A DNA stretch of 6,597 nucleotides from a virus (lineage: Duplodnaviria; Heunggongvirae; Uroviricota; Caudoviricetes), in the IMG/VR virus record IMGVR_UViG_2740892442_000003, one strand, 5' to 3'. Of this stretch, positions 1-6,597 are shown one piece after another (within the stretch, counting starts at the first letter, position 1; each line of letters opens with the position of its first letter). The position numbers and the translations under genes are program-made. Under the pieces are notes generated by a model. The model was not told the origin of the DNA. It made no database searches and was given only the letters and a program-made list of their open reading frames with translations.

Positions 1-310
1 ATTCGATAACGGCGGCAACGGTCGATTTCGCAAGAATATCCCGCCCAACTTTTGTCAGGGTTGCCAGACTGGCAACATCATTCCCCGTAAAATACGGAAA
101 CCTGTCTGCCGCAGTAGCAAGCCCGGCCAGCGCCGTCAGGGTGGCATCTTTCGGTTGCTTACCCGCAAGCGCGCTAGTCATGGTGGTCGCAAAATTCGGG
201 TCGTTGCCCAACGCCGCAGCCAGCTCGTTCAGCGTATTCAGTGCGTCAGGCGACGAGTCCACGAGGCAGCGATCGCAGCCATAACATAAGCCGTGCTTGC
301 GATTTGGGTA
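1..310 (-). pseudogene. Tail-fibre gene fragment (conserved lambda Stf / P2 H-type segment), 5-prime truncated, continues past window start
   Basis: Minus-strand frame open from 310 to the window edge translates ...LVDSSPDALNTLNELAAALGNDPNFATTMTSALAGKQPKDATLTALAGLATAADRFPYFTGNDVASLATLTKVGRDILAKSTVAAVIE, which I recognise as the conserved segment shared by enterobacterial phage tail fibres. No ATG or RBS; recognisable similarity starts near 273-280. Confidence 0.7.
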
Positions 311-880
311 TTATTCGTTCCCTGTCGCGCAGTTGGTGTTGTTGGCGTTCCGGTCAGAAGATGCGATTTTCACCACCGGTTTCCGGTTGCCGGACGCGGC
401 AGAAAACGGGCGGTCGTAAGATTTAATGGTCCGGATGGTGCATTCCGCATTCGCGGGCACGGTGACGGCAGACACCTCCATCAGTTCCCAGCGCAGAAAA
501 TGCAGTCCGCCTCCGTCCAGAAAGGTGTATTCATGGGGACGGAAGCCCACGGACAGCCCCCTGACCAGCCCGGTCTTAATGGCCGCCCAGACCTCATCCA
601 GCCGGGCAGCCAGTTGCGACGGCATATCCGGTACGGGCTTCACCAGTGTTGCCGTGATTTCCAGCCCTTCGCTGACCCGGCGCACCGTACACTGCCCCAC
701 CGGGCGGGAATGGTCATGCTGCCAGAGAAACGGGATCGCACTGCCAAACTCCGCGCCCTCCGGCTCCAGGATGTCACCATCCCGATCCGGAGAAGGCGTT
801 GACGCAATCCCGGTGATCACCCGTTCATCCTCACTGAAGGATTTCACCGTCAGCAGGGAACAGGCCCGTTTAAGAGTCAC
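311..880 (-). CDS. Prohead (capsid maturation) serine protease, HK97 family (peptidase S78/U35)
   Basis: 189-aa ORF with GTG start and AGGAGG 5 nt upstream. Family motifs present: GIASTPSPDRDGDILEPEGAEF, LWQHD, GLSVGF, LMEVSAVTVPANAEC. Confidence 0.8.
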   Translation of the reverse strand: MTLKRACSLLTVKSFSEDERVITGIASTPSPDRDGDILEPEGAEFGSAIPFLWQHDHSRPVGQCTVRRVSEGLEITATLVKPVPDMPSQLAARLDEVWAAIKTGLVRGLSVGFRPHEYTFLDGGGLHFLRWELMEVSAVTVPANAECTIRTIKSYDRPFSAASGNRKPVVKIASSDRNANNTNCATGNE

Positions 881-891
881 ATCAGCCTCCT

Positions 892-918
892 GAAAATAAA
901 AAAACCGCCGGAGCGGTT
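892..918 (-). terminator. Putative intrinsic terminator between TerL and the protease gene (minus-strand transcript)
   Basis: Minus-strand RNA would form AACCGC-UCCG-GCGGUU (6-bp stem, 4-nt loop) followed by UUUUUUUAUUUU. No T-tract in the plus orientation. Confidence 0.55.
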
Positions 919-943
919 CGTGATGGTTACAGTGTGAACAGGG

Positions 944-2605
944 TTATATGAAAAAAACCGCATATTCTTTCTTTTTCGGTTCCGGGTTAAGGGACATCAG
1001 GGAGACCGCATTGAACAGCGCCATCAGCGGGTCAATTTTTCCCCGTCCACTGGCCTGTTTGGTGATAAGAATGGCGTTACCTTTAGGCTCCACCCGGGCA
1101 TTGCCGACACACCAGGCCATCAGGGGCTGGTCACCATGCACCAGCACCCCTTCAGCCAGTTTGCGCTCGGTGGTTTTAATGGCCCCGCCCAGTTTCCAGC
1201 CCTGGCTTATCCCCACCACAATTCCGTCGGGGATCCCGGCTTCCGCCAGTGAATCCAGAATCTGCCCCACCCCTGACGGGTCAATACCGATATGGTCCAG
1301 TAACTCAGCCTCATGAATGCGACGCACATATTCCGCCACTTCCGCCGTGTCATCCCCGACACGCCGGACAATGGTCATATCTCCACAGGCAACAAGATCC
1401 TGAAACCGGGACGCCTCGCTCTTCCGTCGGACCACCGCGGTTTCATGCGCCCAGGCATGGCCCCAGCCCAGCCATTCGCGGGTCTCCCGGTCACGCCCAA
1501 TCACATACATCCCCAGCAGATCATCCAGCCCTCCGCCGTCAATCCCCACCGTCACCACATCAGCACGACGCAGGATATCGTCCAGGCTGATACAACGGCC
1601 CTGCTCTTCCCAGAAATCAGCCCCCGCCCAGCGGTCAGAGCGCAGGGCAAGACCAATTTCCACATTGGCGTGTTTTGACATGAACCCCCGGAATGTCTCT
1701 TCACCGGCTTCCCGGGCTTTACGGTACTCCCGGTACAGAAAGGCCTCATCCACTGAATAGCCGAGATTCGGATTGACCATGGCGAGGTTTTCCATCAGCA
1801 GGTTAGCCCCGCTTTCCACCATTTCAGGAGGGTGTTCAAATATCACCGGCAGAAAGTGCGGATCATGAATTTTGCCGTCGCGCACATCCCGGGCGTACTG
1901 CAGTTTCTGTCTGAACACCCCGGCGGGCGGTTCATTCGACTGGGTGGTCGTATACACCACAAACCCTTCCGGGCGGGAGGCAAGGCCGCCTATGGCTTCA
2001 CGTAACATGTCCTCCGCCTTGCACTGCTTGCCAAACAGCCACAACTCATCAATCAGCGTACCCACGGACTTGATACCGGACACCGTATTCGGATCGGCTG
2101 CCACCACCTTCAGGGTGGTGTCCGTCACTCGGTGGGTGATGGTCCGGATATGGGTCTGTACCTGGCAGAGGTCATCCAGATCATCGTCACGTCGTACCAT
2201 ATCCCGGGCAGGGTTGAAGGCGTTGGCCGCCACCTCCACAGTCGGGGCCAGAATCGTGTAACCCGCCGCCTGCCGCCAGTTCAGTAACAGTGCAGTCATC
2301 ATGATCCCCGCGGCCAGCGTGGACTTCGAGTTTTTCTTGGGGATAAGGATAAAAACTTCCTTGATATGGCGTACACCGGTCTGCGCATCGTAGGAGCCAA
2401 ACAGGGCCGCCACCAGGTCAAACACCCACGGTGCACAGGACTCCCCGAACGTAGGGCTACCAGGTGCATCCACAATCCGCAGTTGTTTAAAAATCGCCAG
2501 GGCATGTGCGGCCTCGTCCGGATAAATCGGATCCGGAATAATCGACAGCCCCTTTTTCAGGCGCTCTGCCCAGTCCGGGCAGGCTGTGCTCCATACAGGT
2601 ATCAT
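944..2605 (-). CDS. Terminase large subunit (HK97 gp2-type, Terminase_1 family)
   Basis: 553-aa ORF with terminase-like ATPase and nuclease regions (VGIDGGG..., DQPLMAWCVGNA..., KIDPLMALFNAVSLM). Start ATG overlaps the TerS stop as ATGA. Confidence 0.9.
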   Translation of the reverse strand: MIPVWSTACPDWAERLKKGLSIIPDPIYPDEAAHALAIFKQLRIVDAPGSPTFGESCAPWVFDLVAALFGSYDAQTGVRHIKEVFILIPKKNSKSTLAAGIMMTALLLNWRQAAGYTILAPTVEVAANAFNPARDMVRRDDDLDDLCQVQTHIRTITHRVTDTTLKVVAADPNTVSGIKSVGTLIDELWLFGKQCKAEDMLREAIGGLASRPEGFVVYTTTQSNEPPAGVFRQKLQYARDVRDGKIHDPHFLPVIFEHPPEMVESGANLLMENLAMVNPNLGYSVDEAFLYREYRKAREAGEETFRGFMSKHANVEIGLALRSDRWAGADFWEEQGRCISLDDILRRADVVTVGIDGGGLDDLLGMYVIGRDRETREWLGWGHAWAHETAVVRRKSEASRFQDLVACGDMTIVRRVGDDTAEVAEYVRRIHEAELLDHIGIDPSGVGQILDSLAEAGIPDGIVVGISQGWKLGGAIKTTERKLAEGVLVHGDQPLMAWCVGNARVEPKGNAILITKQASGRGKIDPLMALFNAVSLMSLNPEPKKKEYAVFFI

Positions 2606-3231
2606 CCGTTGCCCTCATTATCGTTATTCACCACCAGTCGGGGGGGCGGTGGCACCGCAAAACGGTTAGCCGCTTTTTTCGCGGCATCACCTTTTGCCGA
2701 TTTTTTCCCGGTATCCCCTTTTTTATGGTGCGTGAACTGCGCCAGACGCCAGGCCGCATCCAGTGCCAGTTTCGGATCAATGCAGAGGTTTTCCACCAGG
2801 ATCCGCCCCATGGCTTTCACCGGATCGGGAAGACCATCCTCCATATATTCAATACCAGGAGACATCACCGCGGACGGTGGCATCTCCAGATTGTTTTCGT
2901 CCGGCTGTGGTATTGCAGCCGCCTCACGGCGACGGGGTTTATCCTCCTGCTCTGATTTTTTCTGCCGGTAAACAGGAACCTCATCCACCTCCACCGTCTC
3001 GCATTGTTTACGGGCTATAAACGCAAGCACCTCAGGATCTTTTGCCAGCTGCGAGCCTTTAACCCTGGCGGTCTTCGCCGAATAACCGGCGGCAATGGCT
3101 GACGCTGTTTTGTTTTTCCCGGACATGAGCGCCAGCGCAAATTTTCGTTTTTGCGTTGTCAGCACAGCCTCCTCCCGGGTCCAGAACGCACTCAGCCGGG
3201 TATGGTTCAGCCATTTTTCCCGGCGTCTCAT
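2602..3231 (-). CDS. Terminase small subunit (P27 / Terminase_2 type)
   Basis: 209-aa ORF; N-terminal LTTQKRKFALALMSGKNKTASAIAAGYSAKTARVKGSQLAKDPEV matches the helix-turn-helix region typical of P27-family small terminases. Sits directly upstream of, and coupled to, TerL. Confidence 0.8.
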   Translation of the reverse strand: MRRREKWLNHTRLSAFWTREEAVLTTQKRKFALALMSGKNKTASAIAAGYSAKTARVKGSQLAKDPEVLAFIARKQCETVEVDEVPVYRQKKSEQEDKPRRREAAAIPQPDENNLEMPPSAVMSPGIEYMEDGLPDPVKAMGRILVENLCIDPKLALDAAWRLAQFTHHKKGDTGKKSAKGDAAKKAANRFAVPPPPRLVVNNDNEGNG

Positions 3232-3238
3232 GCCGCAA

Positions 3239-3362
3239 ATGTTAACTGCTGCCTGGTTAACATTTGCTGAAAAAGCCTGTTAACATTTTTTCCGCACAAC
3301 AAACTGAATAATAAAGATAAAAACCGCAAAAATGCCCGGGCAGCCAGTTAACATGTTAACTG
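3239..3362. promoter_or_regulatory. Cluster of five GTTAAC-core 10-bp repeats (CAGTTAACAT / ATGTTAACTG), candidate cosB-like terminase binding sites
   Basis: GTTAAC at 3241, 3256, 3279, 3347 and 3355. 3239-3263 is an inverted repeat with a 9-bp spacer; 3345-3362 (CAGTTAACATGTTAACTG) is a perfect 18-bp palindrome. Lies between HNH and TerS, where the cos site sits in HK97-like phages. Confidence 0.4.
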
Positions 3363-3454
3363 CCCTGAAACGGGAATTTTTTCTCTGCGTGAGAGGGGGC
3401 GCGGTGTCCAAAGCGATCGTTTTTTACGCCGGATGATACCCCCCCCGGGTTGGG

Positions 3455-3820
3455 TTACAGTCCGATGATGTCGTCCTCTCTGCCACTACCTCCGGACACC
3501 TCCGGCAGCGTCGGGTCCGGCATACCACTCGCCGCTTCACGAGCAGACTTTTGTCGATGGCATTCGGTACAGAGCGTCCAGAGATTCGTCTCCTCATTAC
3601 CACCACCGAACTGAAGTGCAATTCGGTGATCGAGTTCACTGTCACAGAGGTCAACCACACGACCACAGAGACGGCACTGCCCGGCGTCCCTGAGCCAGAT
3701 ATGACGCTTGAGGGAAACACGTGCACTGCCACTGACACGACGCTGTTCACCCTTCAGAATATTCACCCGTCGGGTATTCAGTGTTTTGATTCTGCTCTGG
3801 AGTGTACGAAGCTCAGCCAT
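3455..3820 (-). CDS. HNH endonuclease (terminase-associated)
   Basis: 121-aa ORF with Cys/His HNH motif CRLCGRVVD...ELDHRIALQFGGGNEETNLWTLCTECHRQK. GGGGA RBS 6 nt upstream of the ATG. Position upstream of TerS is typical of cos-packaging HK97-like phages. Confidence 0.85.
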   Translation of the reverse strand: MAELRTLQSRIKTLNTRRVNILKGEQRRVSGSARVSLKRHIWLRDAGQCRLCGRVVDLCDSELDHRIALQFGGGNEETNLWTLCTECHRQKSAREAASGMPDPTLPEVSGGSGREDDIIGL

Positions 3821-3861
3821 GTAAAATCCCCGTCATATGGCAATCAGTAAAGGAAATAAAT

Positions 3862-4062
3862 ATGTCATCGAAAAACCGTACCCGCAGAACCACAACCCGC
3901 AATATCCGTTTCCCCAATCACATAATTGAACAGATCAACATCGCCCTTGAGCATAAAGGGTCCGGTAACTTTTCAGCGTGGGTTATTGAAGCCTGCAGGA
4001 GAAGGCTGGCAACAGATGCAACGCATCTGCGCCCGGCCAGCATGACAAATAACGAGAAATGA
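3862..4062 (+). CDS. Small ribbon-helix-helix-like protein (YlcI/YnfO-type prophage ORF, DUF3950-like; family assignment from memory)
   Basis: 66-aa ORF from the internal ATG at 3862 with AAGGA RBS (track ORF begins further upstream at a GTG). MSSKNRTRRTTTRNIRFPNHIIEQINIALEHKGSGNFSAWVIEACRRRL has a strand-helix-helix pattern. Divergent from HNH across a 41-bp spacer. Confidence 0.65.
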   Translation: MSSKNRTRRTTTRNIRFPNHIIEQINIALEHKGSGNFSAWVIEACRRRLATDATHLRPASMTNNEK

Positions 4063-4260
4063 ACGTTCGGTTTCTTCCACCATCGCACCGGACAGGCGAC
4101 TATGAGGGGACAACGCCGCGCTCCGTTAACGCGGTAAACCCCGGTGTGTATCGTTTTTGATTATCCCCGCACACTCGCGCAGAGGAGTCTCCCTGTCGGG
4201 CTGCGGTCTCTGTTAATGCAGGAATACGGCGACAATACCGCGCATGGATAATAAGGTCGC

Positions 4261-4485
4261 TCAACACACTGGCTGTAATGCAGCGGATACCATGCGGCAT
4301 TTAGCGGCATTCATCGTACACTCCACGGTTAGCTCTTCATTCGTGGCATTCACCTGAAAGGTCCGGGAGTGTAATTGCGTACATTTACCACTGAACGAAC
4401 CTTCAACAAGAACACGACCACGCTGCAAAATACGGAACGGAATTGTTCCCTGAAAAGGTTCTACGGTTACCCGTAATTTCTTCAT
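4261..4485 (-). CDS. Hypothetical 74-aa protein translationally coupled to Rz
   Basis: ATG overlaps the Rz stop as ATGA; GGAGGA RBS 3 nt upstream. Four Cys, no signal peptide or transmembrane segment. No family recognised. Confidence 0.5.
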
Positions 4486-4976
4486 GTATCCTCCGGATAA
4501 TAAAAAGCCAGCTTAGTGCACTGAGTGCGGATATATTCCTGCGCCCCTTCCAGCTGCTTCTGCATTGTCATCAACCGTTCTCTGAGGATGAAATAATCCC
4601 GTTCAGCGGTGTCTGCCAGTCGGGGGCCGGTTGCATTATCCACGCTGGAGGTGCCGGTGGCTTCACGCACGGTACCGGGGCAGGTGGCGTTGACCCGCAG
4701 GCGCTTACGACCAGCGGCAACATCAGCGCGCAGAGTTTCATTTTCAGCTCTCGCATCGGCTAATTCCTTCGTGTATCTGGCATCAAGCGCAGCGACATCT
4801 CGCTGGCGCTGCTGCATGTCAGTAATAGTGGCATTCGCCAGTTTCAGCTCACTGACTTTTTTATCGCGCTGCGCTTTGTAGGTGATGGCGTTATCGCGGT
4901 AATGATTCAGCCCCAGACTAAGCACACCACAGGCTACCAGCAGGACAATAATCACCACACACAGAACACGGTTCAT
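4482..4976 (-). CDS. Rz: Rz i-spanin (inner-membrane spanin subunit)
   Basis: 164 aa from ATG at 4976; N-terminal transmembrane segment [20 protein letters not shown] followed by [17 protein letters not shown]...[20 protein letters not shown], closely resembling lambda Rz. The track ORF's upstream GTG extension is rejected. Confidence 0.9.
4571..4756 (-). CDS. Rz1: Rz1 o-spanin lipoprotein, embedded in the +1 frame of Rz
   Basis: 61-aa ORF wholly inside Rz; lipobox LVVSAC then proline-rich [26 protein letters not shown], closely resembling lambda Rz1. Confidence 0.85.
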
Positions 4977-4977
4977 A

Positions 4978-5064
4978 TCACCACCAACGGATTGCCCAGA
5001 CCAGAACAGCAATGGCCACAATACGAATGGCAAATGCCATTGCCCGAATAAGTTCAGCACTCAT
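4978..5064 (-). CDS. Small hydrophobic peptide D (28 aa, single predicted transmembrane helix)
   Basis: [28 protein letters not shown]. Its TGA stop lies 1 nt before the Rz ATG. Paralogous to the core of peptide C. Confidence 0.4.
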
Positions 5065-5075
5065 CTTTTTAAAGT

Positions 5076-5198
5076 TCACGATTTCAGCGCAATGACCAGT
5101 TTTGCCAGCCCATACAGCATCGGAGACACAGCAATACCAACAGCCACCCACTTAATAGCAAAAGCCAGCGCTCTGCTGATGTCATCAGTCACTGTCAC
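5076..5198 (-). CDS. Small hydrophobic peptide C (about 40 aa, single predicted transmembrane helix)
   Basis: GTG start overlapping the stop of peptide B (GTGA); (M)TVTDDISRALAFAIKWVAVGIAVSPMLYGLAKLVIALKS. Start codon uncertain. Confidence 0.4.
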   Translation of the reverse strand: MTVTDDISRALAFAIKWVAVGIAVSPMLYGLAKLVIALKS

Positions 5199-5326
5199 CC
5201 CAGCAGCCCCGACGAAGACAACATCACCCAGGCGAGGGACAGAAAAAGAGCAACCAGCATTAGTGAAAATGAAATACCGACAATCACACACAGGACCTTT
5301 GCCGGCGTTATGAGTTTGTCTGACAT
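5195..5326 (-). CDS. Small hydrophobic peptide B (43 aa, single predicted transmembrane helix)
   Basis: ATG with AAGGGG RBS 5 nt upstream; MSDKLITPAKVLCVIVGISFSLMLVALFLSLAWVMLSSSGLLG. Starts 2 nt after the stop of peptide A. Confidence 0.45.
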   Translation of the reverse strand: MSDKLITPAKVLCVIVGISFSLMLVALFLSLAWVMLSSSGLLG

Positions 5327-5328
5327 AG

Positions 5329-5424
5329 CTACCCCTTAATTGCCACAATTAACTGGGATACTACCCATAAAAAAGGGATGCTCCAGACCAGCAAAAATTT
5401 CCAGTTTGGTAATTGACTAATCAT
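5329..5424 (-). CDS. Small hydrophobic peptide A (31 aa, single predicted transmembrane helix)
   Basis: ATG at 5424 with AGGGAG RBS 9 nt upstream; MISQLPNWKFLLVWSIPFLWVVSQLIVAIKG. The longer GTG-started track ORF (to 5541) would read through the terminator hairpin and is rejected. Confidence 0.4.
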   Translation of the reverse strand: MISQLPNWKFLLVWSIPFLWVVSQLIVAIKG

Positions 5425-5495
5425 GAGTCGCAACTCCCTAATCAGTTTGCTAAAATCAATCAAGGCAGCCTCCCATAGCTTACTGCCATAAAAAC

Positions 5496-5535
5496 AAAAC
5501 CCCGCTTGCTGCCAACAAACGGGGTTTTTACTTTT
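5496..5535 (-). terminator. Strong hairpin with U-tracts on both sides (intrinsic terminator, stronger in the minus orientation)
   Basis: Arms 5496-5508 and 5516-5528 form a 13-bp stem with a 7-nt loop. In the minus-strand RNA there is one G-U wobble and a UUUUGUUUUUAU tail; in the plus orientation one C-A mismatch and a UUUUUACUUUUAUU tail. Lies 90 nt downstream of the endolysin stop. Confidence 0.6.
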
Positions 5536-5618
5536 ATTCACTTACATTTTGCCAGTTCGCAGGATTTCGTGTTATCCATCCGCCTTGGCCAACGTCATTT
5601 ATTAGCAAAATATTCTGC

Positions 5619-6152
5619 TTATCTGTCGATTCCCCAGCACGCCAGCGCGCTCTCCTGGTCACGACGGGATACCTGACCGTAACAGTTATTTGAGCGAATA
5701 CGGCAGTCCCTGCCACCGTCCTTAATCCACCAGCGAATCGCCTCACACGCTCCCCTGCGATCACCTGCATTAATTCGTTTATAAAACGTCGACGGAAAAC
5801 ACTTACCGGGGCCAATGTTGTACGGACAGAATGACGCGATCCCCGCTTTCTGGGGTTCACTCAATGGCACTCTGATGTTTTTCTCCACCCATGCCAGCGC
5901 CTTATCACGCTCAATGGCGTTAACCCGGTCGCATTTTTCCTTCGACAACTTCATGCCAGGAACGACAGGTTTGCCATCCACCAGGATGGCACCGCGGCAG
6001 ATGGTCCAGATACCCGCGCCATCACGGTATGCCGTGGTGTGGTTACCTTCCTTTTCATCCAGAAACTGGTCGAGAATGTCAGGCGCAGGCGCACCAGCGG
6101 CAATCAGCGCCAGAACGGCAGCCGACAGGCCGTATTTGATTTTGGTGTTCAT
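5619..6152 (-). CDS. R: SAR endolysin (phage lysozyme, T4-lysozyme-like glycoside hydrolase with N-terminal signal-anchor-release domain)
   Basis: 177-aa ORF. Weakly hydrophobic Gly/Ala-rich N-terminus YGLSAAVLALIAAGAPAP, then catalytic E-x8-D-x5-T in EGNHTTAYRDGAGIWT. Resembles lysozymes of lambdoid prophages (recalled, not searched). Confidence 0.9.
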   Translation of the reverse strand: MNTKIKYGLSAAVLALIAAGAPAPDILDQFLDEKEGNHTTAYRDGAGIWTICRGAILVDGKPVVPGMKLSKEKCDRVNAIERDKALAWVEKNIRVPLSEPQKAGIASFCPYNIGPGKCFPSTFYKRINAGDRRGACEAIRWWIKDGGRDCRIRSNNCYGQVSRRDQESALACWGIDR

Positions 6153-6215
6153 GGATATTTATCAGGATTTATCGGTTTCTGCCCACGGACAGGTTTATCT
6201 GTTCCGGTCAGTGAC

Positions 6216-6567
6216 TTAAGGTTGTGATTCCGGAGGAGTCTTCAGAGAACCAGTAATTATTCCCGGTAGCTTTCCTTTGTAGGTTATCCATACATTCTGC
6301 GCCTCTAAAATTACGGGGCGCTTTTCCGGCGACTGCTCATCCCCTTCACATAACCCGGCAGCAACATCCAGGAAGACCTGTCTGATGCTCCTTCTGGCTG
6401 CTGCCTCATAAAACTCCAGCGTGGCACCTTCAACACGGTCCAGCGAGATGTCCAGGTCAAAAATTTCACCGTCAAAGCGTTTTTTTGTCCCGTAACGCTA
6501 AAGTTACCGTAACTTTATTCTCAAAATTGCGGATCCCTTTCACAATCAGTTCATAGTTTTGAGTCAT
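6216..6567 (-). pseudogene. Small conserved-looking ORF upstream of endolysin, split by a +1 frameshift in an A7 run (possibly ydfR-like; tentative)
   Basis: ATG at 6567 with GGGGAGAG RBS gives MTQNYELIVKGIRNFENKVTVTLALRDKKTL then stop. The +1 frame continues from the A7 tract (T7 on plus strand, 6480-6486) as RFDGEIFDLDISLDRVEGATLEFYEAAARRSIRQVFLDVAAGLCEGDEQSPEKRPVILEAQNVWITYKGKLPGIITGSLKTPPESQP with no start codon of its own. Confidence 0.5.
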
Positions 6568-6597
6568 TGAATTACTCTCCCCGTGCAGCCTTACGAC

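Follow-up and report, generated by a model that had tools for sequence, protein, structure and literature searches.

A deletion scar in the late region of a defective Escherichia coli lambdoid prophage, very probably left by a single recombination event

The stretch of DNA analysed here, referred to as the window, comprises the 6,597 nucleotides of IMG/VR virus record IMGVR_UViG_2740892442_000003, and its ORF list places all genes relevant to the scar described below on the minus strand (Table 1). Read in gene direction, from right to left, the window carries YdfR, lysozyme, small ORFs, Rz, a 74-aa ORF, an HNH endonuclease, TerS and TerL, followed by a 63-bp spacer, a 189-codon ORF and tail-fibre-like coding sequence that runs off the left end. 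The HNH endonuclease is the usual partner of HK97-type terminases. Relatives of the element annotate a class II holin, which falls just past the right edge of the window. A scan of the whole window against Rfam at gathering thresholds returned no RNA families.

Table 1. Features of the window, with positions counted from its first letter and the basis or a remark where available.
Position	Strand	Feature	Basis or remark
1-15	.	Left part of a 27-bp inverted repeat, gix/pix-like crossover site	Comparison of contigs L006 and L007
1-357	-	Internal part of a side tail-fibre gene of the lambda Stf type, codons 507 onwards of 968	Continues past the left edge
265-266	.	1-nt deletion in a 3-base homopolymer, specific to the window (GG; GGG elsewhere, + strand)	Alignments
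280-282	-	Internal ATG	In the window yields only MAAIAASWTRRLTH and a stop
311-880	-	Truncated head gene, GTG start after AGGAGG, 189 codons, TAA at 311-313	ORF list, profiles, breakpoint
355-357	-	Junction, 3-bp CTG microhomology common to the head gene and the tail-fibre gene	Pairwise comparison with strain 4/4
902-919	-	Terminator-like hairpin and T-run in the spacer between TerL and the head gene	7-bp stem, 4 G-C pairs, tail TTTTATTTTC
944-2605	-	TerL, 553 aa, apparently intact	PF03354 and PF20441; TerL of relatives equally long
2602-3165	-	TerS, 187 aa as annotated in relatives	PF03592; coordinates mapped via alignment
3455-3820	-	HNH endonuclease, upstream of TerS	PF01844 and annotation of relatives
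3862-4062	+	YlcI/DUF3950 gene, divergent	
4261-4485	-	74-aa ORF, phrog_2571, function unassigned	Overlaps the end of Rz
4482-4976	-	Rz	ORF list and Phage_lysis annotation of relatives
4571-4756	-	Rz1-like ORF, embedded in Rz	
4482-6152	-	Lysis region, retained: lysozyme, small hydrophobic ORFs, Rz, Rz1-like	
5619-6152	-	Lysozyme	ORF list and Phage_lysozyme annotation of relatives
~6250-6567	-	YdfR-family ORF, frameshifted	ORF list

The 189-codon ORF contains the complete S78 protease domain of a protease-capsid fusion family, with Peptidase_S78 (PF04586) of Pfam matching residues 48-152 at E = 2.4e-9, above the gathering score. The NCBIfam model TIGR01543 gave E = 4.6e-13 and 49.5 bits, under its 59-bit cut-off, and in PHROGs the ORF matched phrog_617, a major head protein family, over profile positions 7-184 of 626 (E = 4e-78). 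An intact relative of 645 aa has PF04586 at residues 48-152 and PF05065 (Phage_capsid) at 386-635, and it also matches the protease/capsid fusion model NF045541 and TIGR01554 of NCBIfam. Because this 645-aa protein carries both S78 and Phage_capsid, the protease is the N-terminal domain of the capsid gene in YYZ-2008-type phages. The C-terminal HK97-fold capsid domain, the second mark of the fusion family, is absent from the window ORF, which consists of 175 native codons followed by 14 foreign codons (DRNANNTNCATGNE) and the TAA; these last 14 codons and the stop derive from tail-fibre DNA, translated in a frame other than its own. The protease gene of the window is thus a truncated pseudogene of the fusion family and not a functional member of it, and the corresponding head-gene stub in the closed E. 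coli genome TUM10008 was annotated by PGAP as a pseudogene with its C-terminus missing. The chimeric 189-aa ORF is best annotated as a pseudogene stub, rather than as a stand-alone prohead protease.

YYZ-2008 (Pankowvirus YYZ2008), long-tailed Stx1/Stx2c phages and the prophage of strain 4/4 have the same order of lysozyme, Rz, (YlcI), HNH, TerS, TerL and fusion gene as the window. Identity over positions 350-6440 ranges from 92 to 99%, and the late region is syntenic with that of lambdoid phages of the YYZ-2008/Pankowvirus type. Among phage records, the sequence from position 350 is about 99% identical to induced E. coli phages and 92-94% identical to YYZ-2008 and many Stx1/Stx2c-converting phages. 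Compared with YYZ-2008-type phages, the element in the window is missing all that lies between codon 176 of the fusion gene and codon 506 of the side tail-fibre gene, both included; YYZ-2008 itself bears stx and Ant genes, whereas the window element is without both. The tail-fibre identity of the sequence at the left end rests on strong matches to phrog_454 and other tail-fibre families in PHROGs, and the tail-fibre proteins gave no matches to Pfam or NCBIfam. The intact tail fibre of strain 4/4 is a 968-codon ORF.

By pairwise BLAST, positions 350-1000 correspond to the strain 4/4 head gene and positions 1-357 to the tail-fibre gene of that strain. Ungapped homology to the intact head gene (L002) covers the window from position 355 upwards, and homology to the intact tail-fibre gene (L003) covers it up to position 357. 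The two flanks are close matches, positions 1-357 being 99.7% identical to L003 2679-3036 and positions 355-6597 collinear with strain 4/4 at about 99% identity. In gene direction, the head gene around the breakpoint reads ATCTTCTG followed by CCGGCG, the tail fibre reads CCTGCACTG followed by ACCGGAACG, and the window at the junction reads ATCTTCTG followed by ACCGGAACG, the string that spans the junction being CATCTTCTG joined to ACCGGAACG. The head gene is cut just beyond its protease domain. The junction string CATCTTCTGACCGGAACGCC occurs once in each of six independent contigs and is also present in TUM10008.

The strain 4/4 record has its two CTG triplets at 1465130 and 1486678, 21,548 bp apart, and about 2.5 kb of this interval is an ISEc12 element inserted in lom. 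The segment missing relative to strain 4/4 is therefore about 21.5 kb, or about 19 kb without ISEc12; the figure of 19-21.5 kb is borrowed from a relative and so approximate, strain 4/4 and the TUM10008 prophage having different early regions. Absent between the breakpoints are the fusion gene's scaffold and capsid portion, a 73-aa ORF, the portal, head-tail connectors, tail tube, chaperones and tape measure, the tip genes M, L, K, I and J, lom and the N-terminal half of the tail fibre. With portal, connectors, tail and J gone, the morphogenesis set is incomplete, and in TUM10008 the two stubs abut directly.

Taken together, these comparisons argue strongly that the window represents the late region of a defective E. 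coli lambdoid prophage with a Pankowvirus/YYZ-2008-type head, integrated at the ompW site, which very probably lost its virion genes in one deletion by illegitimate recombination. A single illegitimate recombination at the 3-bp CTG would have brought codon 175 of the fusion gene up against codon 507 of the side tail fibre, and the same event would have taken out the entire virion module. One deletion is preferred because, on either side of a single junction, the sequence is collinear with that of an intact prophage and 99-100% identical to it. To judge from the bases at the junction, a microhomology-mediated mechanism would be the most likely, although a microhomology of three bases is scant and insufficient alone to name the recombination mechanism. 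The initial annotation had proposed a cryptic prophage with a deletion scar and with lysis and packaging genes retained, and the comparison with strain 4/4 bears this out; the abutment of protease and tail-fibre fragment that it had remarked upon is the breakpoint itself. It had left room for one or more large deletions, of which one stands and several do not, as the flanks run collinear up to a single junction. Alignment with intact prophages, which it had suggested as a means of placing the breakpoints, was carried out and gave this one junction. The locus offers a clean case of a lambdoid prophage turning defective, with one deletion and the whole virion module gone.

The complete element could be followed in TUM10008, where it spans about 35.5 kb by its coordinates. 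It opens at ompW/integrase, and next come excisionase, regulators, replication genes, Q, tRNAs, holin, lysozyme, Rz, HNH and TerS. Beyond these lie TerL and the two stubs, then tail-fibre assembly genes, the remnant of an invertase, a methyltransferase, Rha and ash; an ompW remnant beside yciEFG and trpA closes the element. The full-length strain 4/4 prophage bears the same genes at its right end (tail-fibre assembly, methyltransferase, Rha, ash), and the integration module and the ompW/trp attachment site are common to both. Judging by gene content, the remaining element would be incapable of making heads or tails and its particle production would be lost; provided that its regulation is intact, excision, replication and lysis should still be possible. 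We consider the finding to be ordinary prophage decay, already reflected in the RefSeq pseudogene annotation and of little importance beyond annotation.

The scar is rare among complete genomes and recurs in other collections. A megablast search of 5426 complete E. coli genomes found the junction in a single one, TUM10008 from Japan, while the sequence runs uninterrupted across the head-gene breakpoint in 1250 of them; the head-gene probe matched 1251 genomes, 1250 of which covered at least 80% of the probe. The exact 189-aa chimeric ORF (KZO73662.1), which arises from this junction alone, was present on at least 70 contigs in 149 index blocks, drawn from NCBI isolates, ENA gut metagenomes (human gut included) and Logan. 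The six contigs that were fetched have the identical junction and are 99.94-99.97% identical to the window, and scar-bearing copies differ by about 0.03-0.06%. The junction probably has a single origin. Given its presence on at least 70 public contigs against one of 5426 complete genomes, the scar is a lineage marker, and the identical junction is usable as a marker for the carrier E. coli clone. A full-text search found no literature on strain TUM10008.

The most serious alternative is natural reduction, the element being satellite-like or helper-dependent: it would retain int/xis, replication, lysis and HNH-TerS-TerL, be packaged into heads and tails from a co-resident related prophage, and be maintained by selection. 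This accords with the scar not being private, the chimeric ORF being carried by at least 70 contigs that include gut metagenomes, and with the packaging, lysis and early genes all being open. There is also a precedent, as other prophages help to package and transfer head-defective lambdoid prophages in O157 Sakai, so that helper-dependent packaging of defective O157 lambdoid prophages is documented (PMC2669165). The Sakai Sp prophages are likewise lambdoid, with deletions of morphogenesis genes and with terminase and lysis genes kept, and Sp6, Sp9, Sp10 and Sp12 have a head-region organisation slightly unlike that of lambda (Asadulghani et al. 2009, PMC2669165). They differ from the present element in strain background and in the specific junction. 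However, full-length prophages occupy the same chromosomal site and match either flank of the junction at 99-100% identity, and the breakpoints lie inside two genes and leave pseudogene stubs. The architecture of phage satellites (PICI, cf-PICI, P4-like) was not seen, the element being a full-length prophage minus one internal segment with a complete lysis cassette, and the annotations of the element include no satellite-type genes such as those for capsid-size redirection or helper interference. In TUM10008, positions 1-1400 of the window match a single place and, if this genome is the 1251st, with less than 80% coverage of the head-gene probe, it carries no close helper copy of the head module. 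After a loss of about 19 kb, the element of about 35.5 kb would retain about two-thirds of the parental length, perhaps too little for stable cos packaging. Because the copies differ by only about 0.03-0.06%, the scar is too young to support inference on selection. The initial annotation had offered a satellite-like element as its second choice, and this did not hold up once the same ompW/trp site and the same downstream genes were found in the full-length prophage, one junction apart. On balance, a naturally reduced element appears improbable. There is a slim chance that the element, which has kept int/xis, replication, Q, lysis and HNH-TerS-TerL and spread together with a successful E. coli lineage, is something other than inert, either as a helper-dependent packageable unit or through a lysis and packaging module useful to the host, with a fibre remnant that would be flipped in trans and is mostly open from its internal ATG.

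The deletion reading itself could be divided into two or more events, one that took the portal and another that took the capsid and tail genes. The canonical HK97 order, in which the portal lies between TerL and the protease, and the hairpin after TerL would both lend themselves to this, and the initial annotation had relied on them: it expected TerS-TerL-portal-protease-capsid, noted a terminator after TerL and a protease that directly follows TerL, and took the missing portal for a deletion. The observations are correct, since there is no portal between TerL and the 189-codon ORF of the window and the hairpin with its T-run is in place. The expectation is not, as this phage group has the fused protease-capsid before the portal. 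In both strain 4/4 and YYZ-2008, the order is TerS, TerL, the 645-aa fusion, a 73-aa ORF, the 861-aa portal and an adaptor, continuing with head closure, gp10-like, tail terminator, major tail, chaperones and tape measure, and then M, L, K, I, J, Lom and the tail fibre. The portal is thus native to a position after the fusion gene, which follows directly on TerL. Intact relatives with the gene order of the window, which the initial annotation had named as evidence that would count against a deletion, do exist for its TerL-protease half. In a megablast search with positions 1-1400, positions 355-1400 were collinear at 99.9% identity with hundreds of intact genomes among the 5426 (the match extends from position 350), and the gene after TerL in these genomes is annotated as a phage major capsid protein. 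Annotated records of Stx-converting phages likewise have a prohead-protease or head gene adjoining the terminase.

The hairpin also belongs to intact phages, being shared by YYZ-2008-type phages and the strain 4/4 prophage. On its own it is statistically unremarkable, with a folding energy of -14.4 kcal/mol (z = -1.1), and the nine terminator-like sites of the window are no excess over the 6.9 +/- 2.9 found in shuffles; it is accepted as real because of its position and its conservation in intact phages. The 63-bp spacer that contains it is identical in strain 4/4 and differs from that of YYZ-2008 by two base changes, one in the loop and one upstream of the stem. The hairpin is a native intergenic feature and no evidence of a scar. 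Since intact relatives run from TerL through the fusion gene to the portal with the hairpin conserved, there is no second scar at the TerL boundary; gene order and spacer conservation in strain 4/4 and YYZ-2008 refute a two-deletion history, to which we assign a negligible probability.

In its TerL (PF03354/PF20441), S78 protease, HNH partner and, in the intact relative, HK97-fold capsid (TIGR01554), the head module is like that of HK97. HK97, however, encodes portal, protease gp4 and capsid gp5 separately, whereas the family of the window has its 645-aa protease-capsid fusion after TerL and the 861-aa portal next. The canonical HK97 order is, therefore, unsafe for inferring deletions where a fused protease-capsid precedes the portal. 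A general literature search on protease-capsid fusions returned nothing specific to this phage group. The portal of the intact relative (861 aa, L002 15796-18381) has its Phage_portal domain confined to residues 54-382, and its C-terminal extension of about 480 aa is without a confident Pfam domain.

That the junction is an assembly artefact, a chimeric join of repeated prophage sequences, is hardly credible: lambdoid prophages abound in repeats (per genome, the 1400-bp query had a median of two matching places) and two homopolymer-length differences from all relatives suggest imperfect sequence quality, but the same junction is present in the closed genome TUM10008 and in six contigs assembled independently from different projects and samples, and contigs with the exact chimeric ORF reach 217 kb.

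One of these two homopolymer differences shapes how the tail-fibre remnant reads in the window. In the native fibre frame, positions 357-267 encode a segment containing TGTPTTPTARQGTNNTQIASTAYVMAAIAA, one base off the protease frame. The reverse strand of positions 1-265 encodes a conserved internal tail-fibre segment (LVDSSPDALNTLNELAAALGNDPNF...) in the same frame as the TAA of the head-gene stub, so that the distal fibre segment (LVDSSPDALN...) resumes in the protease frame 15 codons past that stop. This agreement of frames arises because the window is without one base of the CCC run (gene strand) at 265-266, a run that is complete in TUM10008, strain 4/4 and the six contigs. In the unshifted relatives L006 and L007, the ATG at 280-282 opens an ORF of 437 or 410 codons that is reported by gene callers. 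In TUM10008, PGAP described the fibre remnant as a pseudogene, a phage tail protein missing its N-terminus. A second single-base loss found only in the window, relative to TUM10008 and the six scar-bearing contigs, affects a CCC run at 3211-3212, upstream of TerS; both losses are probably homopolymer sequencing errors or private mutations.

These details modify the earlier description of the fibre fragment. It had been placed in the protease frame 12 codons after the TAA. The shared frame is correct for the window, although only through the window-specific 1-nt deletion, and the gap is 15 codons. The fibre DNA does not begin after the stop, as had been supposed; it begins at 357, upstream of the stop and in another frame. 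The absence of a start codon applies to the native gene, whereas relatives use the internal ATG. Likewise, the claim that every tail gene is gone is accurate within the window, yet to its left the distal fibre and two tail-fibre assembly genes survive.

At its left edge, the window enters an invertible tail-fibre segment. The repeat CCGCCGTTATCGAATACCTCGGTTTAC, which we take to resemble Gin/Pin/Hin crossover sites, lies at L006 8867-8893 and pairs with 11959-11985. The 3,119-bp segment between the repeats (L006 8867-11985, L007 8104-11222) holds two alternative fibre C-termini and two Tfa genes. It is inverted in L007, L008 and L010 relative to L006, so that both orientations occur among contigs with the identical scar. 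In these respects, the region is like the segments of Gin/Pin/Cin/Hin-type systems (Mu G, P1 C, e14 P): imperfect 27-bp inverted repeats inside the fibre coding sequence flank alternative C-termini of the fibre with one Tfa gene apiece, and both orientations occur in nature. It differs from them in that the fibre gene is truncated, which leaves switching without obvious function, and in that no intact serine invertase lies beside the segment; the adjacent invertase is an N-terminal remnant of about 60 codons that then runs into stops (PGAP: recombinase family protein, incomplete). If the deletion was a single event, the two orientations among scar-bearing contigs imply that inversion went on after it, and inversion probably continues through an invertase encoded elsewhere and acting in trans. 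An origin of the junction at the invertase crossover site was considered and rejected, the site being about 340 bp from the junction.

Several smaller differences were noted in the right part of the window. A T7 run at 6480-6486 (T6 in strain 4/4) frameshifts the YdfR/DUF1327 gene on the minus strand; the frameshift is also present in TUM10008, where the gene is annotated as frameshifted, and the gene is intact (116 aa) in contig L007. The slot of about 640 bp between lysozyme and Rz (4977-5618, minus strand) contains small hydrophobic ORFs, annotated in relatives as 70, 43, 51 and 28 aa, and a strong terminator-like hairpin with a 15-bp stem lies at 5496-5528, just past the lysozyme gene. Since YYZ-2008 has its Ant gene in this slot instead, the slot looks like a moron or exchange site. 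Finally, the 74-aa ORF contains a 9-bp in-frame insertion at 4278-4286 relative to strain 4/4.
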